From NCBI GenBank assembly GCA_026414185.1, contig JAOAJL010000004.1:15966-73748 (forward strand): a DNA stretch of 57,783 nucleotides. The letters run 5' to 3'. Made by a program: the position numbers and the translations under genes. Below are positions 3,101 through 32,881 of this stretch, one piece after another (position 1 is the first letter of the stretch; every line of letters starts with the position of its first letter). The notes below the pieces were generated by a model. That model was not told the DNA's origin and did no database searches. It saw nothing but the letters and a program-made list of their open reading frames with translations. The stretch is from Candidatus Micrarchaeota archaeon. Lineage in GTDB: Archaea > Micrarchaeota > Micrarchaeia > Anstonellales > Anstonellaceae.

Positions 3101-3451
3101 GCTCTTTACTATCTTGACAGGCGCGATGAGAACGGCGATCTTAAGCTGAACAAGGGGTTCTTGCGCCAGCTTTGGGATGGAAACGACGCCGCATCCTATG
3201 AGTTGGTCTACAACAACCTGCCTGTCTGGCCAGGCGCAAACGGAACATTTGTGGGTGGCATGGAGGATGCGAAAACTAAGTTCTACACATCAAACCTATA
3301 CCGCGGCTACTACCTGCGCCAGCTTGACGGATTTGACTTGGTATTCTCCTCTGCAAACGGCGAGGTGAAGATATACAAGATGAAGGATGAGTTCTGGAAG
3401 GGGAACAAGGAGGGCTATGTTGACCCTGTGGCTGCCGCCGCCACCCAATAG
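149..3451 (+). CDS. aglB: Oligosaccharyltransferase AglB (STT3 family), 1100 aa
   Basis: Polytopic N-terminal region; ELDPYWY, TIAEQ (TIXE) and SWWDYGHWI motifs; DK-like GGKYGAL; C-terminal FDLVFSS..VKIYK. Confidence 0.96.
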   Translation: MVAFEFNFVYQNFLVLISALVPGLAVGIPLLRKSELSVLEKVLISFFLGLVIVPSMLFFEALAGAQFSLFLVLVNIFVVCAAGIFWGMKEGAFRFEIPKIDIDALLELKEAQRHLPSVLLLLAVLVAFWLRIQTYSPIYAELDPYWYVYGTGQIIREGSVPPHDDTAWWPEAKSSHRDVPLKMYLEAHWYALYTGGGPYNNYLLFVTSSWLPPIAAAMASFGAYLLFSAYAGRRYGLFAAYLLAFLPITMFKMQAGVNEAAPYGVMAIFVSLGTFALAAVKKDMNLGVVSSIAFFAGMAGSNYAPVASLALGGFVALQALDYFVRGKKNHQFLILCAVVAVGIILGRVAENLYTGGISGVVAGLLSGPIFIMAGALALAYGAEKLVEGGMPQKRRAAAALACLLAFLLVIIVPSPLGKFVKSQLGGYVAAADFNAPLERTIAEQGRAGASFEGESSILGWVPASHADAAVLKKDPAASLVFFIAGFDPSSMGKAMEGATLLSSIGWVSSALSNLFLGICFSAISIPLNVVLGFLRYFALLPTEVPGEPSTTLPTYTTPFSMLANGSLSVATWLFNSLLDTRITSDLKSDSLVLFFLLTATVGMVARHFIRRGEERDEPSIAILLLLFILPVSYVGLNKIKFGLFVGLGVAAAATAAIFELELAAAWLARKYRALPEADVRKIFTAFLCMMVLAQAFGPAGYAKYVLPVSFSVRYQDDPVGLAPKMEMLCEQLRAKGYYDPEICAAGIDPSYPDTINRQFNSKVCMVSQLSIFDLVPGNSKAEQNAALEARTGAGSRCHRLSEYWVETMEWINRNLAPDDRVTSWWDYGHWINYFGDRKAVLRNEHVSRGMIGRIAHDYIDGKPEDLIKTMNYYDSRYVLFDGELIDSGNMFGGKYGALNYLSCAHDRQTSVQQSPGESDCEWRHAPERVVIPKVLLPQISCVISESQQTTGVYVYVVDKYGSIDQNKPDYCLGEVTLSTGERISALYYLDRRDENGDLKLNKGFLRQLWDGNDAASYELVYNNLPVWPGANGTFVGGMEDAKTKFYTSNLYRGYYLRQLDGFDLVFSSANGEVKIYKMKDEFWKGNKEGYVDPVAAAATQ

Positions 3452-3465
3452 CAGGTGGGATTAGG

Positions 3466-4839
3466 ATGGGGATGGGGCTTTTCGGAACAAATGGCGTGCG
3501 AGGGACGATTGACAAGCTCACGCCCATGCTTGCATTTGACCTTGCGGCGGCTTTCGCAAGCAGATGTGAAAAGGGCAAAATCGCCCTTGCGCGCGACATG
3601 CGGCTTACTTCCCCGCTTCTCCACTCAGCTGTTCTTGCGGGCATAATGTATGCCGGCAGGGACGCTGTTGATTTCGGATTGGTTTCCTCCCCGGTCGCTG
3701 AATATGCGCACCACAAGGCAGGGACAACCGGCTTGATAATCGTCACCGCCTCGCACAACCCTCCGGAGTGGAACGCCCTGAAATTTGTTGATGAAAACGG
3801 GGTTGCGATATCTGCGGAACGGGGCGAAGCGATAGAGAAGTCGGCTCTCTCAAAAGCTTATTACAAGGCGGACTGGATGGGGGTTGGCGGCTACGAGGAG
3901 AAATGTGGTGCCACTGAGCAACACGCAAAGGCTTGCCTTGAGGCTTTGGATGCCGAGAAGATAAGGAAAGGAAGGCTGAGGGTTGCCCTTGACTTTGGCA
4001 ACGGCACAAGCTCGCTTTCATCTTCGCTGTTCTCCTCGCTTGGCTGCGAGGTTATTGCTCTGAATGAGAAGCTTGACGGAAATTTCCCAGGCAGGCTCTC
4101 TGAGCCTTCTGAGCAGAATGTCCAGAGGCTGCTTGGGGTGGTGAGGGAAAATTCCTGCGACTTTGGGGTTGCCTGGGATGGCGACTCCGACAGGGTGATA
4201 TTCGTTGATGAGAATGGCAGGTGGATTGTGGGGGATAGAGGGTTTGCAATTTCCGCAAAGAGAGCTTGCCAAGAAGCCGCAGAGTCCGGCAAGAAGGACT
4301 TCTTCGTTGTCACCACGGTTGCAACAAGCCGCGCGGTTGAGGAATCGTGCGCGCCTTTTGGCGCGAAAACTATATACACGAAGGTCGGGGCGCCTTACCT
4401 GTCAGAGAAAATGAGGGAGCTTTCTGGCTTGGCGGTAAGCGGGGGGGAGGAGGTCGGCGGCATCATCTGGCCCTCCTTTTCGCTTGCCAAAGACGGCATA
4501 TTCGCAGCCGCGAAGATGTGCGAGCTTGTATGCGAAAGGAAGCTCAGCGAGCTTGTTTCCGAGCTGCCGCTTTATTACAACTCAAAGTCAAAGCCGCAGA
4601 TTTCTCCGGAAAGGAAGAGGGAGGCGCTTGAGGCTGCGAAAAAGCACGCGGAGGGGATGGAGGGCGGGCGCCTGACTCTCGTGGATGGAGTTCGTGTTGA
4701 CCTTGAGGATGGATGGGCGATTGTGCGGGCTTCTGGAACTGAAAATGCGCTCAGGATATTTGCTGAGGGAAAAACGCAGAAGAGGGCTGAGCAGCTGCGC
4801 AGGGAGTTTGAGGATGCGCTAAGCGGCATGATAGGCTAA
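3466..4839 (+). CDS. Phosphohexomutase (phosphoglucosamine mutase / phosphomannomutase family)
   Basis: LFGTNGVRG, TASHNP phosphoserine loop, DGDSDR metal loop, GGEEVGG, VRASGTE. Confidence 0.93.
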   Translation: MGMGLFGTNGVRGTIDKLTPMLAFDLAAAFASRCEKGKIALARDMRLTSPLLHSAVLAGIMYAGRDAVDFGLVSSPVAEYAHHKAGTTGLIIVTASHNPPEWNALKFVDENGVAISAERGEAIEKSALSKAYYKADWMGVGGYEEKCGATEQHAKACLEALDAEKIRKGRLRVALDFGNGTSSLSSSLFSSLGCEVIALNEKLDGNFPGRLSEPSEQNVQRLLGVVRENSCDFGVAWDGDSDRVIFVDENGRWIVGDRGFAISAKRACQEAAESGKKDFFVVTTVATSRAVEESCAPFGAKTIYTKVGAPYLSEKMRELSGLAVSGGEEVGGIIWPSFSLAKDGIFAAAKMCELVCERKLSELVSELPLYYNSKSKPQISPERKREALEAAKKHAEGMEGGRLTLVDGVRVDLEDGWAIVRASGTENALRIFAEGKTQKRAEQLRREFEDALSGMIG

Positions 4840-5747
4840 CTTCTGCTTTTGTAGTATTCTATAAGCCGCCTTATCCCTTCCTCAAGGGGAACTTTTGCCT
4901 TAAAGCCGAGCTTCTTTTCAGCCCTGCTTGTGTCTGCCTGCGTGCGGGCTACGTAGTTTTTTATCGTGTTTTGCCTGTAGAGCGGTGCGATTGAGGTGCC
5001 CAGCTTCTGGTTGAGGAGTGCAATCATCTCGTTTATGGACGTTTCCCTGCCGGTTCCTACGTTGAATATTCCGAACCTTATGCGGCTTTTGGCTGCCAGC
5101 AGGTTTGCATCCACCACATCCTCCACATAGGTAAAGTCCCTCGTCTGCTTCCCATCGCCGAAAACGACAGGTGCCTCCCCTTTCATCATCGCCCACAGAA
5201 ACTGCGAGACTAAGTTGGCATACTGCCTTTTGTATTCTTCACGCTCCCCGTAAACCGAAAAGTAGCGCAACCCTATTGAGCGCACGCCGTAGAGCCTGAA
5301 ATAAAGCTCCGCCAGCCTTTCCATCGCATAGCGCGCCTCTGTGTAGTAGTCGGTCACCTTTATCCTGGCGGTTTCCCTGTGCGGCGGCTCAATGCCGTTG
5401 TAAAGCGAGGAGGAGGAAGCGAAAACCAGCCTGCAGTCCTTTGCACGGCAATACTCAAGCACGGCAACCATGTCCTCAATCGCCTTAGCTGTAAGAAAGG
5501 GGTTGTCCTTGTACATTGGCGAGGAGGAGTATACGCCTTGGTGGAAGACCGCCTCCGGCTTTTGGCTTACCTGCGAAATCGCCCTGCTTTCGGCTTTTAT
5601 AAGCTGGATTTTTCCTGCAATGCCCGAAAGATTTCCCTCGTTTCCGGAAAAAAGATTGTCAATGACGACCAGTTTTTCTGCGCCAGAAGCAAGCCTGTGG
5701 GCTATGTGCGAGCCTATGAAGCCTGCCCCGCCTGTGATTACGTACAT
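4836..5747 (-). CDS. NAD-dependent nucleotide-sugar epimerase/dehydratase (extended SDR)
   Basis: TGGAGFIGSH, ASSSSLY, LRYFSVYG, RDFTYVEDVV; catalytic motif reads YTEAR rather than YxxxK. Confidence 0.9.
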   Translation of the reverse strand: MYVITGGAGFIGSHIAHRLASGAEKLVVIDNLFSGNEGNLSGIAGKIQLIKAESRAISQVSQKPEAVFHQGVYSSSPMYKDNPFLTAKAIEDMVAVLEYCRAKDCRLVFASSSSLYNGIEPPHRETARIKVTDYYTEARYAMERLAELYFRLYGVRSIGLRYFSVYGEREEYKRQYANLVSQFLWAMMKGEAPVVFGDGKQTRDFTYVEDVVDANLLAAKSRIRFGIFNVGTGRETSINEMIALLNQKLGTSIAPLYRQNTIKNYVARTQADTSRAEKKLGFKAKVPLEEGIRRLIEYYKSRS

Positions 5748-5804
5748 AAGAAAAACCTCCTGCGGATTAAAGGCAGCAGAGGTTTATGAAAGTTTGGGAT
5801 GGTT

Positions 5805-6128
5805 TCAGCAGCCAAGAAAGCCCCTGAAAAAAAGGTGCGTCGCATTCTGCTCTTTTTCAGCCTCCTTTTTTGCTATCTGCCCAAGAAGCTGCTGGGTTTT
5901 TTCCAGCTTCTGCGAGATTGGAAGGTTTTCCGCCATGCTGTTTTTTTGGAAATCCTCGTCAATAAGCCCCTTCCTTGCGAGTATGCTCAGCACTTTTGCG
6001 AAGCGGGTCAGCGAGCGGTTTGAATCCTCCGTTCCAATCTTTTTTATGAGGGATTGCGCCTGCAGCAGCATTTTGCTTTTGGTTTTCTTTTGCGGTTGTG
6101 TCATTCCATAATTTTCCATCTGAAACAC
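5805..6128 (-). CDS. Hypothetical protein (~100 aa, helical, Lys-rich)
   Basis: Only ORF filling the gap between epimerase and ACT gene; start uncertain (6128 GTG or a downstream ATG). Confidence 0.55.
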   Translation of the reverse strand: MFQMENYGMTQPQKKTKSKMLLQAQSLIKKIGTEDSNRSLTRFAKVLSILARKGLIDEDFQKNSMAENLPISQKLEKTQQLLGQIAKKEAEKEQNATHLFFRGFLGC

Positions 6129-6177
6129 CCCATTCTAATATGATAATGAACCTTTTTAAGCATTATTGTATAAAAAT

Positions 6178-6681
6178 ATGCATATGCTGCGCTATGTGGA
6201 GGAGTTTTTCGCAGGAAGGAGGGCGGCGCTGAAGGTAGTCGGCGCTTTTCTTCGGCTTGGAATAAGGGTTGATGAGGCAGGAAAGCTTTACTGCGAAAGC
6301 ATAGAGCTTGCCCCTGCCAAAGTCGCGCGCGCTCTTTCGGTGGATAGGCGGGTGGTGATTGAAACCGCAAGGGAAATCGCCTCTGACCCGCAGCTTTATC
6401 CTGTGTTTTCAGGGCTCCTTCCGATTGCCAACGTAGAGCGGGCGGCAAAATTTTTTGGGCACGATGTGATAGAGATAGGGGAAAACCCGTGCTCCATGGG
6501 GGTTGTGGCAAAAGTAACAGGCATCCTTGCCAAAAACAAAGTCAACATACGCCAGATAATAGCGGATGACCCTGACTTGTATCCTGAGCCAAGGCTGCGC
6601 ATCGTGATTGACGGGCGCTTGCCGCAAAAGGCGCTGCTTGAAGTGCGAAAGCTTGGGTTGCAATCCATATCCCTTAAATAG
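6178..6681 (+). CDS. ACT-domain protein, COG2150-like predicted regulator of amino-acid metabolism
   Basis: N-terminal helical part (ARALSVDRRVVIET) plus C-terminal ACT-like GVVAKVTGILAKNKVNIRQIIADDP; TTTTTAAG about 25 nt upstream. Confidence 0.8.
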   Translation: MHMLRYVEEFFAGRRAALKVVGAFLRLGIRVDEAGKLYCESIELAPAKVARALSVDRRVVIETAREIASDPQLYPVFSGLLPIANVERAAKFFGHDVIEIGENPCSMGVVAKVTGILAKNKVNIRQIIADDPDLYPEPRLRIVIDGRLPQKALLEVRKLGLQSISLK

Positions 6682-6712
6682 ACAAGGGGATACAGATTTG
6701 GGGTTGATTTCC

Positions 6713-7420
6713 ATGGTTAAGGCAATTGTCTTATGCGGAGGCAAGGGGACCAGGCTTCGCCCCTATACATACACCATACCGAAGCCTATGCTGCCGCTTG
6801 GCAAAAAGCCCATACTGGAATATGTCCTCTCCACGCTGAAAAACGCGGGCATAACCGAAGTCACCTTGACTGTCGGCTATCTCTACGAGCAGATTGTGGA
6901 TTACTTCGGGGACGGCAAGAGACTTGGGATGAAGCTCTCATATTCCATTGAAAAAAAAGAGCTTGGCACTGCAGGCTCCATTGCCCCGCTTTGCGGAAAG
7001 TTCAAGGAAACCTTCGTGGTGATGATGGGGGACCATCTTTCAAACATAGACATAGCGTCGCTTGTGAGGTTTCACAAGAGAGAGGGCGCAATAGCCACAG
7101 TTGCGCTAAACCGGAAGGGAGTGCCGCTTGAATACGGAGTTGCGGATGTGGAGGGAAGCCGCATAGTGCGCTTCCGGGAAAAGCCCATCGTGGAGAACCT
7201 TGTCAATTCAGGCGTCTATGCCTTTGAGCCCAGGATATTCCAGTACATCAAGGAGGGGGACGACTTTGCAAACGATGTTTTCCCGCTTCTTTTGCAAAAA
7301 AAGGAGAAGGTGTCCGGCTTTGTATTCACGGACTACTGGCTTGACATTGGAAGGACCACCGACTATGAGCACATAAACCAGCTTATTTCGGTTATTGATT
7401 TGACGAAGAAAATGCGCTGA
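6713..7420 (+). CDS. Sugar-phosphate nucleotidyltransferase (NTP_transferase family)
   Basis: AIVLCGGKGTRLRPYTYTIPKPMLP, ELGTAG, FREKP, YWLDIG; start moved from the ORF-track 6608 to ATG 6713. Confidence 0.92.
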   Translation: MVKAIVLCGGKGTRLRPYTYTIPKPMLPLGKKPILEYVLSTLKNAGITEVTLTVGYLYEQIVDYFGDGKRLGMKLSYSIEKKELGTAGSIAPLCGKFKETFVVMMGDHLSNIDIASLVRFHKREGAIATVALNRKGVPLEYGVADVEGSRIVRFREKPIVENLVNSGVYAFEPRIFQYIKEGDDFANDVFPLLLQKKEKVSGFVFTDYWLDIGRTTDYEHINQLISVIDLTKKMR

Positions 7421-15505: not shown

Positions 15506-16099
15506 ATGACTCGCAAAGGCGAAACCAATCCAATACACCTGCCGCCTCTGCTGCGCGGCTGCAGGCGCGGCCCGCAGGTGATGCTGCCAAAAGACATCGG
15601 GATAATTCTTGCTTACTGCGGGGTGGGGAAAAACTCTGTTGTTGTTGATGCGGGCGCAGGAAGTGGATGGCTTGCAATTGCCCTTGCCAATGTATGCAGG
15701 CGTGTCGTATCATATGAATGGCGCGAGGAGTTTGCGCAATTGGCGGAAAAGAACGCCAAGCGGGCTGGCGTGTCGGATTCCCTTGAGGTAAAAAGAAAGG
15801 ACGTCTTTGATGGGATTGACGAGCGCGATGTGGATTTGGTAACGCTGGACATGGCGGACTCGGACAAGGTCGTGCCGCATGCGCACGCTGCTTTGCGAAA
15901 AGGCGGCATGGTTTTTGGCTATCTTCCGCATGTGGAGCAGGCAAGAAAGTTTTTTGAGGCGTGCCAAGCCGCCGGTTTTTCGGATGTGCGGATGCTGGAG
16001 TGCATTGTGAGGGATTACCTCGTGCGGCAGGCAGGGGTGCGGCCTCAAAACACAGGGCTTGTCCACACAGGATATATTGTTTTTGCGACCAAGAAATAA
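15506..16099 (+). CDS. trmI: tRNA (adenine-N1)-methyltransferase TrmI/Gcd14 family, short N-terminus
   Basis: RGPQVMLPKDI, VVDAGAGSG, SYEWREEF, LDMADS, VRPQ..GLVHTGYI. Confidence 0.88.
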   Translation: MTRKGETNPIHLPPLLRGCRRGPQVMLPKDIGIILAYCGVGKNSVVVDAGAGSGWLAIALANVCRRVVSYEWREEFAQLAEKNAKRAGVSDSLEVKRKDVFDGIDERDVDLVTLDMADSDKVVPHAHAALRKGGMVFGYLPHVEQARKFFEACQAAGFSDVRMLECIVRDYLVRQAGVRPQNTGLVHTGYIVFATKK

Positions 16100-16118
16100 A
16101 TCCGGGAGGTGTGTTTGG

Positions 16119-17105
16119 ATGAAGGAACTTGTTTTGGCACTTTTGATTTCGGCGGCGCTGCTTTTGGCAGGGTGCGCGGGGGGAAGCCAGCAACCTCCCT
16201 CCCAGCAGCAACCGCAGCAGGAGACGCCGAAAGCACCTGCGCCGCAGGAGAAGAAAGAAACTTCGCCCCCCTCCCTGCCGCCTTCCGAGGGGGAAAGCAA
16301 GCCCGCGGAGCAGTCGCCTCAGCCTGCCGTTGAGTCTGATACTTGCACAGTCGGTTTCCAAAAGGATGCCTCAAATGTTTATCTTGTGATGGTAGATGCG
16401 CAGACCTCAAAGGAAATTACTGTGAGCTGCCCGACAGGCACGCCAGCGGAAAGGAGAGGCACCCTTTACTTCTGCGAAAGGCTGGACTTTCCCGGGCAGG
16501 CGGTGGCTTACATAGACGGAAAGAAGTGCGGGGCTGCCTCGTTTGTGCGCGGAGCGTATGAAACAAAGGGCAGCTCCAAGATATTCTGCACCATCTTTCT
16601 TTCGCAGACTAGGCTTACTGCCGGGCAGAGCACTGAAACAACCATACAGACCTCAACGGGAGAAAAGGAAGTCCTGCTTGAATACACCTGCGGAAGCGAG
16701 ATAAAAAGGCAGAAGCGAAGCGGGCTTGTGAGAGACGGGGCGATATGCACCTACAGCAAGCCCGGCACTTTTGTGGTGGAGGCAAAAATTGACGGGGAGG
16801 TATGCGACTCCAAGCTCATTGAGGTGTTCGCAAAGCCGAAAGACTGCTTTGTGCTGCCGACTGTGTTCTCAAAGGAAGGGGACTACTACGTGTATAAGGC
16901 GAAGGTTGCGGCGCGCGGCTACTCAGGCAACGACGAGATTTCCTACCGCTGCTACGACAACCTGTTTGGCATAAAGGTGCGCGACATACCAAACTCCACC
17001 GACTTCATAAAGGAAATTGAGTGCCGTGGCAAAAGCGGGCCTTTGAGCCAGCCTGTCAAGGTGCGCATCGGTGCGGATGAGTGCGGCTACATCCTGCCAC
17101 AGTGA
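16119..17105 (+). CDS. Putative lipoprotein with Pro/Gln/Glu linker and three 4-Cys beta-rich domains
   Basis: MKELVLALLISAALLLAGC lipobox-like signal; low-complexity linker; three repeats ending IDGKKC, IDGEVC and IGADEC. Confidence 0.75.
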   Translation: MKELVLALLISAALLLAGCAGGSQQPPSQQQPQQETPKAPAPQEKKETSPPSLPPSEGESKPAEQSPQPAVESDTCTVGFQKDASNVYLVMVDAQTSKEITVSCPTGTPAERRGTLYFCERLDFPGQAVAYIDGKKCGAASFVRGAYETKGSSKIFCTIFLSQTRLTAGQSTETTIQTSTGEKEVLLEYTCGSEIKRQKRSGLVRDGAICTYSKPGTFVVEAKIDGEVCDSKLIEVFAKPKDCFVLPTVFSKEGDYYVYKAKVAARGYSGNDEISYRCYDNLFGIKVRDIPNSTDFIKEIECRGKSGPLSQPVKVRIGADECGYILPQ

Positions 17106-17128: not shown

Positions 17129-17509
17129 ATGGGCAGCAAAATAAGGGGCATGAGGCTCTTGCTTGCCGTTGTTTTCTTGCTTGCCGCCGCCCAGCTTTCA
17201 TATTCTGGAAAGCCCGCTCCCCCACCCAGTCAGCAGGCTTCTCCTCTTCAAGATGTCAACGAGGCGGTATTTGCGCTTTGCAATGCCCTCAAATCCCTCC
17301 TTCCAGTAGTTGCGATGCTTATGATAGTGTTCGGAGCGGTGGTTTATGCCGCTGGGCAGATAATGGGGGCGGAAACAAGGGCAAGGGCAAACGTCTGGGC
17401 AACTGCGGCAGTCACGGGCGCGCTTGTTGCCATGCTGATTGCAACGGTCGCTCCAGCAGTTCTTTCAATGATGGTTCCTGGCGTTCAGTGCGACGTATTC
17501 GCTCCGTAA
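17129..17509 (+). CDS. VirB2/TrbC-like (T4SS-type) pilin, copy 1
   Basis: Signal-like N-terminus, short linker, then two hydrophobic helices joined by a basic loop (GAETRARANVW); 48/67 identical to the 57386 paralogue by manual alignment. Confidence 0.7.
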   Translation: MGSKIRGMRLLLAVVFLLAAAQLSYSGKPAPPPSQQASPLQDVNEAVFALCNALKSLLPVVAMLMIVFGAVVYAAGQIMGAETRARANVWATAAVTGALVAMLIATVAPAVLSMMVPGVQCDVFAP

Positions 17510-17530: not shown

Positions 17531-20155
17531 ATGGGTGTAGGAAGAAGCGAGATAGTTCTGATGGCAGTGGCGGCGATTCTTCTGCTTTCTGCGTTTTCGT
17601 TTGCAGAGCAATCCCAGCCGCTTTCCACTGCGGCAATAACCTCAAAGCCGACCTCCGCTGTTTTTGTGCCAAAGGAAACTTCGGCAAAAATAAGGAAGGC
17701 GGATGTTGACTGGAAAGATGCGAGGATAGGCTACAACAATACCAGCCGCAATTTCACGGTGGTGATAAGCGCCTATGCTTTCAACAATTCAACAGGCAGG
17801 CTCTACAAGACAGGGACTGCAAACAACACAAGCGTCATTGTGGTTTACCAGGGAAGCGCGGCTGACAGATACAACCTTGTTGTGATAACTGGACCGCTGA
17901 AAACTGGCAAGACTTACGGCTCCTCAGCCACTCTCAGACGCGGGGAGGAGGCTCCGATTGCTGTGGAGCCTGACAAGAACTATGTGGTTAGAAAATGGGA
18001 AGTTTTGATGGGCGAATGCACGGTGAAGAACCCCTATGCGCCTTCTACGGAAGTGGCTATTTTTTCCTCTGACAAAAGAACATGCGTGGTTGAAGCACAG
18101 ATGGGCAGCCTTCTTGACAGATACACGGGGGTTGCGACCTCTGGCGCTGAAGGAAAAGCGGTTTCCACCGGCACTGCGGGCGGAAAAGCAAATGCAGTCT
18201 GCACCGCTGCAAAGCCGGTATGCCCTGAAGGCACGCTTCTTGAAATTTCATCAGACCAGTTTGGTTGCCCGATTTACAACTGCAAAAAAACAGGGGCGGG
18301 TTGTCCAGTAGTAAAGCCCGACTGCCCACCAGGGAGCGTCTTGACGGAAGCTTACTCCCCTGACAAAGCGTCTGGCTGCGCAGCTTACGAATGCAGGAAG
18401 CTTTCCTGCCCGATAGCTTCAAGCGCCGCCCCTGGAGGCGTCAATATCTGGGAGGACTGCTCACTTTACGGCGGTGTTAAGCCCCCGCAGTGGATTGACG
18501 AGCTTGGATGCGTGCATGCCTGCCTGGAAACGAAGAAAACCTGCCCGACAAGCCAGCCGATACTTGAAGATTGCTCGGTCTTCGCAGGCGCGGTGCCTGC
18601 TGAGCCGTGGCTTGATGAAAATGGCTGCCTTCACAAGTGCAAAGGCTCTCCGCTTTGCACAGCAAAAAGCCAGCCTGTTTTGGTAGACTGCGGCAAAATC
18701 ACAACGACGGTAAGCTGGCTCAACCAAAAGACCGGATGCTGGGAGGCATGCAAGCCCCCCGCTGTCTGCCCGATTGATGGTGTTATCGCGGATATTGATT
18801 GCGGAACTTCGCCGGGCATTGGAATTCAGACTAAGTATGTTGATGAGCAGGGATGCGTGCATGTGTGCAAGCCTGCCGCCGCAGTATGCCCTGTGAAGGG
18901 CGGGATAATTTATGACATTGACTGCTCTTCAACTGCGGCTGCTGCAGTGGTGCCTGAATACACTGACAAGGACGGCTGCATCCACAAGTGCAAAAAGCAG
19001 ACCGTATCTGGCTGCGATACCAAAACCATAATTGAAGTGGACTGCTCTATGATGGGCAGGGTGGCAGCCCAGCCTTGGAAAGGAGAGGATGGCTGCCTCT
19101 ACAAATGCTCTTCCTCAAAATCCTGCCCGACGAAGGCTGTGAAGTATGTGGATTGCGCGGCTTATGGAGCGGTTATGCCCGAAAAGTGGGTTGGAGAGGA
19201 TGGGTGCACATATGCCTGCCTGGCAAAAGAGAAGAAATGCCCAAATGCGCAAGACCCGACGTATGTGGATTGCGCGGCAAGCACAAACCTGCCTTCGTAT
19301 ATTGATGAGAACGGCTGCACCTACCTCTGCAAAAAGACGCCTGTGTGCTCCCAGAAGGGAGTTCGGCTTGTGGACTGCTCTGCTGGAATTTCAGGAAAGG
19401 AGGGTGTTTGGGTTGGAGAGGATGGGTGCGCTTACGCATGCAAGAAAGCGCTTGTCTGTCTCTCCAGGGGTCTAAATTATGTGGACTGCCCGGACATCTT
19501 GCCCGAAGGATTCAGCTGGACTGATGATTCCGGATGCAAGTTTGCCTGCAGGAAAAAGGCGCTGTGTGCATCAGCTATGCCGGTGGTAAAGACGGACTGC
19601 CCGCCGACATCGCCGGCAAGCTATGTTGATGCCCAGATTGGTTGCACGGTGATTTGCAGGAATGTGGCGGAAGCTTTTGTCCCAAAAAACCAGACCAATC
19701 AAAGCAAGCCCGACTTGGTGATAAGCCAGATTTCAATCCCAGCCACAGTGACTGTCAATGTCCGCGTTTATGGAAGCATAACGACTAAAAACGTCGGTCA
19801 AGGGCATGCCGGCAATTCCACGACCGCCTATTACATAAACGGCGCTTTCGTCAACAGCATTCCAGTTCCGCCTTTGCCGCCAGGGGCCTCAAGCACGGGC
19901 AACGCAAGCTTCGTGTGCCTGCGCGCAGGGACTTATGCATTTAGCGCCAAGGCTGACTATTTGGGGGCAATCTTAGAGGAGAACGAGACCAACAACGAAA
20001 AGAACGTGACTTTCAGCTGCGTTCTTTCAAGCGGACAGGTGCAGACATCGCCTGTCGGCTCGGAAAGCATAGTTGCCTCCATGGCGGACACCTCAGGCAA
20101 TCTTTATGCCAAGGTGATGGGCATTTTAGGAGTGCATCTGGAAAGCTACAGGTAG
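17531..20155 (+). CDS. Secreted Cys-rich repeat protein with C-terminal CARDB-like domain, 874 aa
   Basis: Signal peptide; 13 four-Cys repeats; PDLVISQI...NVGQGHAG...ADYLGAILEENETNN CARDB-like motifs. Confidence 0.85.
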   Translation: MGVGRSEIVLMAVAAILLLSAFSFAEQSQPLSTAAITSKPTSAVFVPKETSAKIRKADVDWKDARIGYNNTSRNFTVVISAYAFNNSTGRLYKTGTANNTSVIVVYQGSAADRYNLVVITGPLKTGKTYGSSATLRRGEEAPIAVEPDKNYVVRKWEVLMGECTVKNPYAPSTEVAIFSSDKRTCVVEAQMGSLLDRYTGVATSGAEGKAVSTGTAGGKANAVCTAAKPVCPEGTLLEISSDQFGCPIYNCKKTGAGCPVVKPDCPPGSVLTEAYSPDKASGCAAYECRKLSCPIASSAAPGGVNIWEDCSLYGGVKPPQWIDELGCVHACLETKKTCPTSQPILEDCSVFAGAVPAEPWLDENGCLHKCKGSPLCTAKSQPVLVDCGKITTTVSWLNQKTGCWEACKPPAVCPIDGVIADIDCGTSPGIGIQTKYVDEQGCVHVCKPAAAVCPVKGGIIYDIDCSSTAAAAVVPEYTDKDGCIHKCKKQTVSGCDTKTIIEVDCSMMGRVAAQPWKGEDGCLYKCSSSKSCPTKAVKYVDCAAYGAVMPEKWVGEDGCTYACLAKEKKCPNAQDPTYVDCAASTNLPSYIDENGCTYLCKKTPVCSQKGVRLVDCSAGISGKEGVWVGEDGCAYACKKALVCLSRGLNYVDCPDILPEGFSWTDDSGCKFACRKKALCASAMPVVKTDCPPTSPASYVDAQIGCTVICRNVAEAFVPKNQTNQSKPDLVISQISIPATVTVNVRVYGSITTKNVGQGHAGNSTTAYYINGAFVNSIPVPPLPPGASSTGNASFVCLRAGTYAFSAKADYLGAILEENETNNEKNVTFSCVLSSGQVQTSPVGSESIVASMADTSGNLYAKVMGILGVHLESYR
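18200..19657 (+). repeat. 13 tandem protein repeats, consensus C-x(5-16)-(D)C-x(10-17)-GC-x3/4-C
   Basis: Units such as CPTKAVKYVDCAAYGAVMPEKWVGEDGCTYAC; the nucleotide block TGGGTTGGAGAGGATGGGTGC recurs in two units. Confidence 0.9.
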
Positions 20156-20280: not shown

Positions 20281-20769
20281 ATGACGAAGATTACCATACC
20301 TGCAATCGTGGAAGGCGGAAAGGCAACAGCCGGGCCACCGCTTGGCCCAGCCCTCGGCCCGCTTGGAGTGAATATAGCGGGCATAATAGACGAGATAAAC
20401 CGCCAAACCCGCGATTTTGCCGGCTTAAAAGTCCCTGTGAAAGTGATTGTGGATAAAGCGACGAAAAAATTTGAGGTTGAGGTTGGAAGCCCCTCAACAG
20501 GCGAGCTTCTGAAAAAGGAGGCTGGGGCTGAAAAGGGAAGAAAGGGAGGTCCTGAGGACCCAAAGACAATCGGCAACCTAAAATTTGAGCAGGTTGTCAA
20601 GGTTGCGAAGATGAAAAGCGGCAGCTCGCTTGTGCGGAACTTGAAGCAGGGTGTAAAGGAGGTTCTTGGCACCTGCGTTTCGCTCGGGATAACGGTTGAA
20701 GGCAAGGATGCGCGGCAGATAAGAAAGGCGGTTGATGCCGGCGAGTACGACAGCCTGCTTTTGGGATGA
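20281..20769 (+). CDS. rpl11: 50S ribosomal protein L11 (uL11)
   Basis: GGKATAGPPLGPALGPLGVN, GLKVPVKV, KEVLGTCVSLG. Confidence 0.97.
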   Translation: MTKITIPAIVEGGKATAGPPLGPALGPLGVNIAGIIDEINRQTRDFAGLKVPVKVIVDKATKKFEVEVGSPSTGELLKKEAGAEKGRKGGPEDPKTIGNLKFEQVVKVAKMKSGSSLVRNLKQGVKEVLGTCVSLGITVEGKDARQIRKAVDAGEYDSLLLG

Positions 20770-20824
20770 GGGGGTTGGCTTTTCTTGGCTAAACCCTTTT
20801 ATATCCTATTTCTGTTCTTTTCCC

Positions 20825-22459
20825 ATGCGCCTGTCTTTTGCGGTTCTCTTGGTTTTCGCTTTTGCCTGCTGCCCAAGCTGGGGCAGGATTATCTGGAGTG
20901 CTTCTGCCACCGACGCTATTATAGGGGCGCCTGTTGTTTTTGGCTCGAAGGCGATTTATGCCTCCTATGATGGCTGGGTTTATGCTGTAAGTGCGGACAG
21001 CGGAACAGTCCTATGGACGTTTAACGCAAAGGAAAAGATAGAGATTGAGCCGCAGCCCATAGACTCTTCTGTCGTGGCTGTTGTGGCTGGAGACGAGCTT
21101 CTTTTCCTAAACAGCGCCTCTGGCTTGCTTTCCGGCAAGGCAAGCCTCAAATCCAAGCCGCTTTGGCTTGGAGGGGGCGAGGGCAGGGCTTTTGTCGCAT
21201 TCAACGGCACTGTTGAGGCTTACGACAAGGACGGCAGGCTTGCGTGGAGGGAGGAGGTTGGGGGGCTGCCTGGGGCGATAGGGTATGGCAGGGGATTTGT
21301 GAGCCTCACCGCTGGGGGAAAACTCTATAGCCTTTCTGCGAAAAACGGCGCGAGGCGCTGGGAGCCTGTGGAGGCTGAAGACTCATTTACATCAAGGCCT
21401 GTGGAATACGACGGCAGCATATACTTCGGGGCAAGCGATGGCAAGGTTTATGCGGTTGATGCGGCAAGCGGAAGGATAAGATGGACGTATCAGACTGGCG
21501 GCTGGGCGGCTGGCAGCCCAGCCATTTCCTCATCCTCAATCTACATAGGCTCTTTGGACGGCACCCTCTATGCGCTTTCCACCAGCGGAAGCCTCCGCTG
21601 GAAATTTCCTACAGGTGGGGCAATCCATACCAAGCCAGAGCTTTATTCATCAGCAGGAAGCCTGGTTGCCGTCTTTGGAAGCGAGGATGGCAAGGTTTAC
21701 GGAGTGGAAACTGCCAGTGGTTCTGAGAAGTGGTCCTATTCTGCCAACGGCAAACCCTCCTCGGCTGTTTATTACAAAGACTACTTCATCTTTTCCACAA
21801 GCAGAGGCAGGATTTATGCGCTTTCGCCCTCCCCGATTTGCAGCTTCAGTGTGCCCAAAAGCGGCGATGTTGTGGGAAATTGGCTTGTGGATTTTGAAGG
21901 CAGCGCAAGCTCGGAATACGCCATGCGCAGCGTGGAGGTGAGGCTTGAGGGGGCAGGATGGGTCAGAGCCAACGGAACTGAAAGATGGCACGCCGTGCTT
22001 GACATGCGCCAGGCGCAAGAAGGGGCGGTCAACATCCAGTGCCGCGCCAGCGATGAAAGCGGGAAGGCTGAAACTGACGATTATTCATTCATCACTCTTA
22101 TCAAATCCGAAAGCGCACCATTAAGAAAGATGTTCATTGTGGCGCCTCCCCAGGTAGGGCAGAATGAGAGCTTCATCCTCTCAGTTCAGGATGAGTATGG
22201 GCGACAGTTGCGCGGTGTGCTTTTGAAGCTTGACGCGGATGAAGTAAAGGGGGACAGCCCGTTTTCCGTTGTCCTCGGAAAAAGCGGGCTTGTCAAGATA
22301 GGGGCTGAAAAGGACGGCTTTGAAAGCTCCCCGATAACAGTACGTGCAACAGGGGGTTCTGAAATTGTCGTTGTGGCTGTCTTTTTGCTTTTGGTTCTTG
22401 CGGCTGCCTTTTACTTTTTCGGCTGGAAAAGGCTGAAGGGGCTCGTTGAAAAGAAATAA
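20825..22459 (+). CDS. Surface PQQ-like (BamB-type) beta-propeller protein with Ig-like domains and C-terminal TM anchor
   Basis: Signal peptide; repeated YxxxxDGxxYAxxxxxGxxxW blades; C-terminal hydrophobic helix plus basic tail KRLKGLVEKK. Confidence 0.82.
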   Translation: MRLSFAVLLVFAFACCPSWGRIIWSASATDAIIGAPVVFGSKAIYASYDGWVYAVSADSGTVLWTFNAKEKIEIEPQPIDSSVVAVVAGDELLFLNSASGLLSGKASLKSKPLWLGGGEGRAFVAFNGTVEAYDKDGRLAWREEVGGLPGAIGYGRGFVSLTAGGKLYSLSAKNGARRWEPVEAEDSFTSRPVEYDGSIYFGASDGKVYAVDAASGRIRWTYQTGGWAAGSPAISSSSIYIGSLDGTLYALSTSGSLRWKFPTGGAIHTKPELYSSAGSLVAVFGSEDGKVYGVETASGSEKWSYSANGKPSSAVYYKDYFIFSTSRGRIYALSPSPICSFSVPKSGDVVGNWLVDFEGSASSEYAMRSVEVRLEGAGWVRANGTERWHAVLDMRQAQEGAVNIQCRASDESGKAETDDYSFITLIKSESAPLRKMFIVAPPQVGQNESFILSVQDEYGRQLRGVLLKLDADEVKGDSPFSVVLGKSGLVKIGAEKDGFESSPITVRATGGSEIVVVAVFLLLVLAAAFYFFGWKRLKGLVEKK

Positions 22460-31331: not shown

Positions 31332-31356
31332 AAAACCAAAAACAGCGGTGGAAGGA

Positions 31357-31656
31357 ATGGCAAAGACGCTTTTCTTTGAAAAGGAGGAGCTTGGGCGCAA
31401 GCTGCGCACCTGCGGCTTGGATGAGCTGCATGTCGCAGAAATCAGCAGGGTATTTGAGAAAAACAACAAGCACATAGATGTGGTGAGCTTTGTCATCATG
31501 CTTGAGCGGTATGGGGTGCAGAGGGCGGACATCTCCTCTTTTTTGCACGACATCGGGGTGGACGAGCCCACGCTCATCAACATATTCTCAAAGGCGGACT
31601 TCACAAGGCTTGGCATGGGAAACCGGGAGATTACGCAGGTTGTGTTGGCTGACTGA
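31357..31656 (+). CDS. Stand-alone paralogue of the ATPase C-terminal domain, 99 aa
   Basis: 34/75 identical, ungapped, to the ATPase segment FEKDEL...KAD (manual count). Confidence 0.88.
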   Translation: MAKTLFFEKEELGRKLRTCGLDELHVAEISRVFEKNNKHIDVVSFVIMLERYGVQRADISSFLHDIGVDEPTLINIFSKADFTRLGMGNREITQVVLAD

Positions 31657-31681
31657 AAATTGTTGGATGGAGGGATTTGGC

Positions 31682-32086
31682 ATGGCGAAGGTCTGTATAA
31701 TATGCGAAAAGGAGACGGATGGCAGCGCGGTGGCGGATGACTTTGTCATCCGGACAATAAGGGCTGTCAAGCAGAGGTTCGGGATTGCGAAGAACAACAT
31801 CCTTGTGGTCTGCTCCTCATGCATGGAGGAGCACCGCAAAAGGCGCGAAAGGTATGAGCGGAACCTTGTGATGCACGTCTTAGTTGCCGCAATCATCCTC
31901 TTTGCCTTTGTGCTTTTGCCGGTTTTCACCACCGGCTTTTCGGTCTCGGCGCTGGTTCTGGGCATCCTGCTTGCCGCAATCATCATCGGGCTTTCAATAT
32001 TCTCCCATCATCCCAAGCTTGCGCCCGAAACGCAAAAGCCCAAGCCCGAGGAAAAGAAAGGACAGCGCGGCAGGAAAAGGAAGTGA
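31682..32086 (+). CDS. Zn-finger (CxxC...CxxC) two-TM membrane protein with basic tail
   Basis: CIICEK and CSSCMEE, two hydrophobic helices, KKGQRGRKRK C-terminus. Confidence 0.78.
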   Translation: MAKVCIICEKETDGSAVADDFVIRTIRAVKQRFGIAKNNILVVCSSCMEEHRKRRERYERNLVMHVLVAAIILFAFVLLPVFTTGFSVSALVLGILLAAIIIGLSIFSHHPKLAPETQKPKPEEKKGQRGRKRK

Positions 32087-32092
32087 TTTTGA

Positions 32093-32881
32093 ATGGTGGA
32101 AATAAAGCTGCCTGAGGGCATGAGGCAGGCGGGGGGGCAAAAGCCGCCCCCTGCCCCACCGCAGCCGCAACCTACATCCCCCATTGTTGGCGGGTTTCGC
32201 ATAGCGGCAAAAAGAAAATGCACCATTGAGGAGCTTTCGCAGAGGTTTGCGGAGCTTTCCTTCCTTCAGCTGACCGTTGAAAAGGATGCGCTTGCCGCGC
32301 TCAACGTGGAGTCGCGCGACATCCAGAAAAACCCCTATCTTTTTTCAATCATCTATTTCAAGCCCGATTGCGTTGAGGCGCTTTATACCTGCCTGCCAAA
32401 CATGAGCCCGAAAAAGCGCCGCATAGACGTGCTGCGCCAGTTCCTCAACCTTCTGACGATAGTGGAGGACTGCTACCAAGTGGAGATGAAGCAGATTTAC
32501 CAGCTTCTTGAAGCCTCAGTGGCGGACATGACTGAATATGTTTCGCTTGACTACGACCGGCTTTTTTCCCTCTATGACAATCTCAAAAGCGAGGTTGCAG
32601 CTCTGCAAAAGAAGGTAAAGGACCTCACGGATGGAAACGCTGCGCTTTCAAAAGAAAACTACGAGCTGAAAAGCAAAAATGACGAGCTTGTGCTTAAAAT
32701 CCGCGGGCTTGAAACCTTCAGCGACTCGGTGCTTGCCCTAAAAATACAGGAGTGGCTTTCAGAACACAAGGGCGAGATAAACATAGCCGATTTCTCCAAG
32801 GTTTACAACGTGCCTGAAACGCGCGTTGAGCAGATGCTCAACAAGCTTGTGACAGAGGGTTATCTTGAAATTAAGGGCTGA
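32093..32881 (+). CDS. Hypothetical protein: Pro-rich N-terminus, alpha/beta domain, coiled coil, C-terminal winged-helix-like domain
   Basis: Heptad-rich LKSEVAALQKKVKDLTDGNAALSKENYELK; C-terminal EINIADFSKVYNVPETRVEQMLNKLVTEGYL. Confidence 0.75.
   Translation: MVEIKLPEGMRQAGGQKPPPAPPQPQPTSPIVGGFRIAAKRKCTIEELSQRFAELSFLQLTVEKDALAALNVESRDIQKNPYLFSIIYFKPDCVEALYTCLPNMSPKKRRIDVLRQFLNLLTIVEDCYQVEMKQIYQLLEASVADMTEYVSLDYDRLFSLYDNLKSEVAALQKKVKDLTDGNAALSKENYELKSKNDELVLKIRGLETFSDSVLALKIQEWLSEHKGEINIADFSKVYNVPETRVEQMLNKLVTEGYLEIKG

Follow-up and report, generated by a model that had tools for sequence, protein, structure and literature searches.

A cysteine-rich modular surface protein in a variable gene slot of a Micrarchaeota genome

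The stretch of DNA considered here, hereafter the window, comprises 57,783 nucleotides of Candidatus Micrarchaeota archaeon (assembly GCA_026414185.1, contig JAOAJL010000004.1, positions 15,966 to 73,748 of the forward strand), whose genome, designated G000 below, is 0.96 Mb long, in 35 contigs, and 87% complete. Part of the window shows the gene order ubiA, purC, purE, a methyltransferase (MTase) gene, a lipoprotein gene, a pilin gene, a gene encoding a repeat protein rich in cysteine (Cys), rpl11 and, at 20732-22459, a gene for a pyrroloquinoline quinone (PQQ) beta-propeller protein. The subject of this report is the Cys-repeat gene, an intact open reading frame (ORF) encoding 874 aa, of which 56 are Cys (6.4%, versus a median of 1.4% for the ORFs of at least 300 aa in the same genome). 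The only strongly hydrophobic stretch of the protein is its N-terminal signal peptide (aa 6-26, Kyte-Doolittle 2.3), behind which are arranged a head, thirteen consecutive four-Cys units, a CARDB domain and a short C-terminal tail module (Table 1). An earlier sequence-only reading of this gene, made without database searches, had described it as encoding an archaeal surface protein with thirteen four-Cys repeats (52 Cys) and a CARDB domain but no C-terminal transmembrane helix, and had compared the repeats with the antistasins of eukaryotes. The architecture has withstood scrutiny: the signal peptide and domain content agree with a secreted surface protein, and the CARDB is recognized by PF07705 well above threshold (E 1.4e-19; 70.6 bits vs a cut-off of 22.7; profile positions 1-100 of 101). 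The antistasin comparison has not fared as well.

Table 1. Features of the Cys-repeat gene and its immediate upstream neighbours (window coordinates).
Feature	Positions	Strand	Basis
Upstream Cys-containing lipoprotein gene, lipobox LLAGC; frequent slot resident	16059..17105	+	ORF
VirB2-like (conjugative-type) pilin gene	17129..17509	+	PF18895, sub-threshold
Whole Cys-repeat gene, secreted modular surface protein	17531..20155	+	ORF, Pfam, Cys-unit layout
Sec-type signal peptide, aa 1-25 (...LLLSAFSFA/EQ)	17531..17605	+	Hydrophobicity; cleavage site inferred from sequence
N-terminal head, aa 26-222: sequon-rich beta region, InlB-B-repeat-like module (~aa 110-192), Gly/Ala/Ser linker	17606..18196	+	
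Two type-A four-Cys units, aa 223-291	18197..18403	+	
Eleven type-B four-Cys units, aa 292-712, proposed disulfide-stapled stalk	18404..19666	+	
CARDB (Ig-like), aa 726-825	19706..20005	+	PF07705
C-terminal tail module, aa ~846-874, SIVASMADTSGNLYAKVMGILGVHLESYR, proposed envelope-docking tag	20066..20152	+	Profile A2
Terminator-like hairpin and T-rich tract, 15 nt past the stop codon	20170..20197	+	Consensus scan only; region not enriched over shuffles

Between aa 223 and 712, 52 of the 56 Cys (first at aa 224, last at aa 709) fall into the thirteen units, each of which spans 31-45 aa and holds exactly four Cys. Units 3-13 (type B) follow the pattern C-x10-12(16)-DC-x15-18-[WY]-x3-4-GC-x3-C, with the C, DC, GC and C elements invariant in 11 of 11 units, and units 1 and 2 (type A), among them CTAAKPVCPEGTLLEISSDQFGCPIYNC, the unit quoted in the sequence-only reading, follow C-x6-C-x14/17-GC-x4-C. 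The two types are related to each other (hhalign of the type-A profile A5 against the type-B profile A1: E 3.3e-5, probability 72%), and when the whole genome is searched with the unit profile, every unit is matched at E-values between 4e-12 and 2e-17, so that the repeat is far beyond chance. The type-B units share only 17-47% pairwise identity (mean 31%), and no tandem repeat is detected in the gene at the DNA level by Tandem Repeats Finder. We therefore take the array to be an old one whose units have diverged, and reject a recent DNA-level amplification or an assembly artefact.

Searches of Pfam and NCBIfam at E≤10 with the whole protein, with isolated repeat pieces and with the paralog P0004 (see below) returned only CARDB, and neither A1 nor A5 matched antistasin, hirustasin, bdellastasin or any other Cys-rich chain of the PDB at E≤10. 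For structure prediction with AlphaFold2 (AF2), the input alignment combined non-overlapping two-unit windows with the metagenomic homolog P0002. In the resulting two-unit model (pLDDT 65) each unit has some three short strands, and the full-length model reaches a pLDDT of 42; because these models are weak, they yield a strand content but no disulfide map or fold assignment, and disulfide pairing, rod shape and tail structure are put forward below as proposals. Foldseek with the two-unit model returned nothing below E = 1.

These searches bear directly on the proposal that the array is an antistasin-type serine-protease inhibitor shielding the cell. The antistasin domain (PF02822/PS51252) contains six Cys forming three disulfides within some 26-30 residues and carries a protease-binding loop. 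Both systems are built from tandem disulfide-rich modules of about 30 aa, the two type-A units loosely resemble the antistasin motif (C..CP.G...D..GC..C, or more generally C..C..G...D..GC), and bdellastasin does appear in the Foldseek list, where chain 1c9p_B occupies rank 13 (E 7.6, probability 0.04, TM-score 0.17/0.23, with a query model of pLDDT 65). The unit described here has four Cys instead of six, however, and is found only in archaea; 11 of the 13 units are spaced unlike the antistasin-like motif, and neither PF02822 nor any other Pfam model matches them at E≤10. Nothing in the sequence points to protease inhibition, and we regard a protease-inhibitor shield as barely credible.

The distribution of the unit is narrow. 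A type-B hidden Markov model (HMM) run against 1.84 billion representative proteins at E≤1e-3 gave ten matches, five of them real multi-unit proteins and the remainder unrelated repeats; the real matches named are the query, its own-genome paralog P0004, the P0004 orthologs P0003 and P0008, and the proteins P0002 and P0005. A word-indexed homolog search with the whole protein returned the query alone. In genome searches, type B was detected in 4 of 41 relatives and type A in 8 of 401 genomes, representing 3 of the 155 genera of the phylum. In these relatives the module occurs in one to five copies, either directly ahead of the tail module or as the last part of other surface proteins, and its passengers include a beta-helix protein (genome G009), surface-layer (S-layer) paralogs (G013 and G014), and a subtilase-CARDB protein and an orphan protein (both G014); the thirteen copies in the window are the highest unit number seen. 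By these searches, the unit is a mobile module that is rare, lacks annotation and is restricted to the Micrarchaeota. Its rarity and lack of annotation also dispose of a possibility that the sequence-only reading had raised against itself, namely that the repeat forms an annotated family of wide occurrence with no link to pilins.

Two of the other carriers deserve a brief description. P0004 is a 573-aa protein encoded on contig C11 of G000 (C11:132255-133976; locus L002 1360-3081), with a signal peptide, three type-B units and one type-A unit, followed by a conserved C-terminal domain of about 150 aa (GWNMVSLPV...GYGYW...GWNLVGAP...GPWHY...GKAYWIKV) to which no Pfam model matches; its orthologs P0003 and P0008 are metagenomic. 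P0002 (locus L039 1054-3170, on an ENA ERZ27250602 contig; L040) carries five type-B units and no tail. Its gene overlaps the upstream call of a 296-aa gene by 55 nt and adjoins a gene pair of the ParE/YafQ toxin type, and the arrangement may represent a larger surface protein, split or frameshifted, within a mobile region.

Dense disulfide arrays had been considered unusual in prokaryotes by the sequence-only reading, a view that does not hold for G000, which encodes several unrelated Cys-rich secreted proteins together with three anchored DsbA-like Thioredoxin_4 proteins (lipobox or transmembrane anchor; CPYC/CYVC motifs). Extracytoplasmic disulfide chemistry therefore appears to be a habit of this organism. 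Among the unrelated proteins are a secreted protein of 323 aa with 49 Cys on contig C22 (forward strand, ~31349-32317), with a DsbA-like gene some 1.5 kb away, and a 459-aa transmembrane-anchored protein with 54 Cys (C7:1463-2842). A type IV pilin-like protein with a class III signal (GQASSEYLII) and a Cys-rich C-terminal domain is encoded on the minus strand of C22 (reverse-complement start 23631). Contig C22 also encodes a lipoprotein with a rod of twelve four-Cys modules, which resembles the protein in the window in consisting of tandem small four-Cys modules and in forming a presumably disulfide-stapled surface rod, but which differs in module pattern (C-x5-C-x6-C-x6-C, ~26 aa) and in having a lipid anchor in place of the tail. 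Kinship between the modules was rejected, with hhalign probabilities of 0.6% (A1 vs A8) and 0.1% (A5 vs A8).

The same Cys could, in principle, bind metal rather than each other, forming a zinc-ribbon-like or metallothionein-like array that serves sequestration or redox chemistry. The Cys content of the protein, the occurrence of relatives in metal-rich or anoxic waters, and the invariant Asp and further acidic residues beside the Cys would suit such a role. The spacing of the unit, C-x10-DC-x17-GC-x3-C, lacks the paired CxxC knuckles, and the even number of Cys per unit fits two disulfides. The secretion signal, the company of extracytoplasmic domains and the extracytoplasmic DsbA-like system likewise speak against metal binding, and at the sequence level no metal-binding family, and no known family that would place these Cys in a metal-binding prokaryotic fold, was matched. 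A metal-binding array is accordingly very unlikely in our view.

At either end of the array the protein has a different character. For the head, the sole Pfam match is PF18998 (Flg_new_2, InlB-B repeat), which remains below threshold (E 0.036; 14.5 bits vs 23.6). Weak alignments link the head to both of the bona fide PF18998 domains present in its counterpart in congener G011 (BLASTP E 0.002 and 0.005; the G011 protein matches PF18998 at 8.3e-10) and to a PF18998 protein of G015 (E 2.3e-4; 3e-18 against PF18998), and they are consistent with the head being a divergent InlB-B-repeat-like module; in the low-confidence AF2 model the head is all-beta. The CARDB domain weakly matches two solved CARDB-like chains, 2kl6 and 3idu. 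It shares 57% identity with the corresponding domain of the G011 protein (E 1e-30) and is related to a CARDB-tail protein of G012 (E 2.4e-33). Thirteen N-x-S/T glycosylation sequons are present, seven in the head (aa 69-99) and six in or around the CARDB. The 489-aa Cys array (aa 224-712) contains none, where about seven would be expected if the thirteen were spread evenly over the protein. The proposed stalk is thus predicted to be free of glycans, and both ends of the protein to be glycosylated.

The C-terminus ends in a conserved module of some 25-30 aa with the consensus SMADTSGN-YAK-M--LG-Y. Profile A2, built on this module, detects it in five of the 23 genomes of the genus (G000, G003, G012, G013 and G014) and in none of the order's 47 other genera; within G000 itself a strict regular expression for the tail finds the Cys-repeat protein as sole carrier, and a search of a 5.8-billion-protein set with the C-terminal 49 aa returned the query alone and no other protein of comparable length. 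The proteins that end in the tail differ widely. They comprise S-layer paralogs of G013 and G014 (E 5e-114 to the S-layer-family gene of the window at 42196-45030, PF05124), the subtilase-CARDB protein and a 415-aa orphan of G014, a minimal protein of G012 consisting of lipobox, CARDB and tail, the metagenomic protein P0005, and a mucin-like protein of G003 that contains the tail twice, once internally and once at its terminus. This last protein (G003:C14, L041 4918-6096; 392 aa, secreted) consists of a small Cys-rich head and long, sequon-rich mucin-like repeats (NTTN.T.ARPAGAAIST). The tail-bearing S-layer paralog of G014 (G014:C4, L026 7265-9943) has its domain order swapped relative to the gene at 42196-45030 of the window, its aa 275-647 corresponding to aa 116-501 and its aa 38-274 to aa 511-789 of that protein, an arrangement that points to circular permutation, or to a shuffling of domains, among the S-layer paralogs.

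Archaeosortase signals, such as PGF-CTERM and PEF-CTERM, consist of a signature motif followed by a C-terminal transmembrane helix and a basic tail. The last 19 aa of the Cys-repeat protein have a mean Kyte-Doolittle value of 0.25, their only hydrophobic run is about 7 aa long (VMGILGV), and no CTERM model of NCBIfam matches the 874-aa protein. The tail is too short and too polar for a transmembrane anchor or an archaeosortase signal. While the sequence-only reading was right that no C-terminal transmembrane helix is present, its corollary that the protein is released, unless another structure carries it, overlooks a conserved module common to unrelated surface proteins of congeners. Given that the tail is shared by such different passengers, a docking tag is the simplest inference, and the module is probably a tag for non-covalent docking to the envelope. 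Because it occurs internally in G003 and is missing from the G011 counterpart, it is not an obligatory terminal signal.

The gene lies in an interval between the MTase gene and rpl11 whose contents change from genome to genome. In a survey of this slot across the genomes of the genus (G000 being the source genome and the other G numbers in this survey its congeners), it was empty in eight genomes and held only a lipoprotein in six; a tail-bearing protein was found in G014 (892 aa), G003 (394 aa) and the contig of P0005, and a VirB2-like pilin together with a large secreted InlB-B-repeat protein in three of the 23 genomes (G000, G011 and G015). Homologs of the lipoprotein encoded upstream of the pilin in the window occupy the MTase-rpl11 interval of G014, G012, G020, G006, G017, G007 and G018 (E 1e-77 to 1e-84). 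On a four-marker tree the holders of the slot are scattered and are not sister taxa; G000 groups with three genomes in which the slot is empty (support 99/96), and G011 with the empty-slot genome G019. This scatter indicates repeated loss and/or exchange of the slot contents, as read from gene order and the marker tree.

Such turnover weighs on the notion that the protein is a passive component of the envelope, a disulfide-hardened S-layer armour with no specific ligand. The notion draws on the presence of the tail in S-layer paralogs of G013 and G014, on a Cys array that lacks sequons and is probably resistant to proteases, and on the many Cys-rich surface proteins of the genome. The protein is nonetheless missing from most congeners, eight of which have nothing at all in the slot, and because of this absence it is not an essential part of the envelope. 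It also carries modules of the adhesion type, the CARDB and the InlB-B-like domain, and we consider a passive coat unlikely.

The pilin gene that precedes the Cys-repeat gene encodes a signal peptide and two hydrophobic helices, and its product falls just under the PF18895 (T4SS_pilin) cut-off (E 2.5e-5; 24.7 bits vs 26.6). We class it as VirB2-like and not as a type IV pilin. Only 21 nt separate the pilin stop codon from the ATG of the Cys-repeat gene, a gap that contains a strong Shine-Dalgarno (SD)-like element (GGGGGTGGGAG) and no terminator, and the two genes are probably co-transcribed. The pilins of the G011 and G015 slots match that of the window at E 4e-29 and 4e-33, respectively, and are among its closest relatives; in G015 the gene after the pilin encodes a secreted PF18998 protein and is truncated where the contig ends. 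The pilin family as a whole, however, comprises about 100 copies at 65 loci in the 23 genomes, and at the approximately 50 other loci almost all pilins that can be assessed stand before genes of a housekeeping type, encoding a conserved protein of 247 aa or else a 580-aa transporter, and the other copies in G000 likewise do not stand before surface proteins. As judged from gene order, the pilin link is genuine, though confined to a single pilin subfamily and to three genomes. The 247-aa protein is recognizable by the motif MAIEFH...GFPGLGLVG, and the 580-aa alternative is a transporter-like membrane protein. Tandem arrays of VirB2-like pilin genes were also observed, with up to eight genes (G006:C5:47017-49600) and, in another genome, four (G019:C2:153359-154816).

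These observations sustain the main rival explanation, in which the protein is a tip or ancillary adhesin, or a specificity factor, of a VirB2-like pilus of the conjugation, Ced or Ted type, carried not by the envelope but by a filament assembled from the upstream pilin and the products of a VirB4-like operon some 9 kb downstream. The short intergenic gap, with its SD-like element and no intervening terminator, argues for this explanation, as do the pairing of a pilin with a large InlB-B-repeat protein in the slots of G011 and G015 and the close relationship of the three pilins. A precedent can be found in monoderm bacteria, whose type IV secretion systems (T4SSs), such as that of pCF10, pair a VirB2-like pilin with a large adhesin, distinct from it, on the surface, which favours contact between cells (bioRxiv 10.64898/2025.12.18.695078). 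The parallel extends to the single-membrane envelope and to a pilin gene accompanied by a gene for a large surface protein, but the bacterial adhesins, which are unrelated in sequence, are held by a covalent anchor in the cell wall, and a role of the archaeal protein in transfer would be read from gene order in three genomes. Those three genomes, moreover, are not sister taxa, the other pilin loci of the genus and the remaining G000 copies lead to different neighbours, and in G014 and G003 tail-bearing and Cys-unit proteins fill the slot with no pilin beside them. Tight gene spacing is normal in these compact genomes, and the protein showed no resemblance by homology to minor pilins of the VirB5 type. 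The suggestion of a tip adhesin made in the sequence-only reading therefore stands in part: adjacency, probable co-transcription and recurrence of the pair in the G011 and G015 slots are borne out, whereas a strict link between pilin and Cys-repeat protein is not. We view a pilus-borne adhesin as possible, if rather doubtful.

The explanation that we prefer, and to which we assign somewhat better than even chances, is that of a Sec-secreted, disulfide-stapled contact protein of the stalk type, encoded in a slot where surface proteins turn over fast and perhaps linked to a pilus. Beyond architecture, distribution and synteny, what follows about function is inferred. Two disulfides would lock each unit, introduced on the outer side of the membrane by the genome's three anchored proteins of the DsbA type, and thirteen such units would make up a stiff, protease-resistant and unglycosylated spacer about thirteen small domains in length. 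The C-terminal module would tether the protein non-covalently to the envelope, through the S-layer or a membrane partner, placing the CARDB and docking tail at the base and the variable glycosylated head at the outer end; with the module at the envelope, the head would therefore point outward. The function of the protein would be contact with, or adhesion to, a host, a partner cell or a surface. Selection acting on this interface would account for the turnover of the slot, and the protein may cooperate with the VirB2-like pilin whose gene is probably co-transcribed. Several observations weigh against this stalk-type contact protein. Neither VKOR nor a DsbB-type re-oxidant was found in G000, and relatives come from habitats of the anoxic type, such as Lac Pavin, in which disulfides outside the cell may have a lower stability. 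The InlB-B-repeat assignment of the head lies below the Pfam threshold, and the structural models are weak both for two units and at full length. The tail, finally, has an internal copy in G003 and is absent from the G011 counterpart.

A bolder extension, which we put forward as a doubtful conjecture, somewhat less probable than the pilus-borne adhesin, would have the pilin and the Cys-rich InlB-B/CARDB protein form a mobile specificity cassette of a conjugation- or Ced-like contact machine of the Micrarchaeota, one that enters the chromosome at an insertion hot spot upstream of rpl11 and that different species exchange or lose. Stalk and head would then choose the partner cell, and the tail would be a new archaeal docking tag for the cell surface, common to adhesins, proteases and S-layer paralogs.

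The stalk-type contact protein can be set beside several known or related systems. In the same chromosomal position is the G011 slot protein (1149 aa; G011:C6, L061 reverse-complemented ~3404-6859), which shares with the Cys-repeat protein a homologous VirB2-like pilin gene before it, a signal peptide, a long body of Cys-rich repeats and a C-terminal CARDB, and whose two PF18998 domains have a putative divergent counterpart in the head described above. It differs in that its approximately 126 Cys are arranged in a six-Cys unit (CG..G..CC.G..C..G..C..G.C) and in that it has no tail. A second, larger Cys module (C..GQ..C.CGYG..C......C......C.PEC..G....C.C) is also present in the G011 protein, and only its PF18998 and CARDB domains are recognized by Pfam, which does not match its Cys repeats. 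The closest published analogues lie within the phylum, where strain-specific secreted surface proteins fused to CARDB have been proposed to act in host interaction in the cultured Micrarchaeon Mia14 ('Ca. Mancarchaeum acidiphilum'; Golyshina et al. 2017, PMC5498576), and in the Nanoarchaeota surface proteins have been reported as the fastest-diversifying class (PMC6142677). Compared by published description, the Mia14 proteins are likewise secreted, modular, CARDB-bearing and specific to strain or species, but their passengers are PKD and beta-propeller (Kelch/YVTN) domains, as opposed to the thirteen four-Cys modules, InlB-B-like head and tail seen here. The VSPs of Giardia (surface proteins that are variant-specific) offer a purely functional analogy, being Cys-rich, disulfide-hardened, protease-resistant and highly variable proteins of a host-associated microbe. 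They are nevertheless eukaryotic and unrelated in sequence, and they vary by expression switching, not by replacement at a locus. Giardia VSPs are further characterized by CXXC motifs and by a transmembrane anchor with a CRGKA tail.

DPANN archaea such as the Micrarchaeota live attached to other cells, and the means by which they attach and choose their partners are largely unknown. The class to which the protein belongs, that of variable Cys-rich surface proteins of DPANN archaea, is familiar; the four-Cys module and the tail are undescribed. Removing the misleading link to the antistasins of eukaryotes leaves three handles on this biology. The first is the module itself, a small disulfide unit that would build a long stalk. 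The second is a short tag that may be a general means, within one clade, of hanging an adhesin, a protease or an S-layer paralog on the envelope. The third is the slot adjacent to rpl11, where surface proteins turn over between species, sometimes in the company of a conjugative-type pilin.

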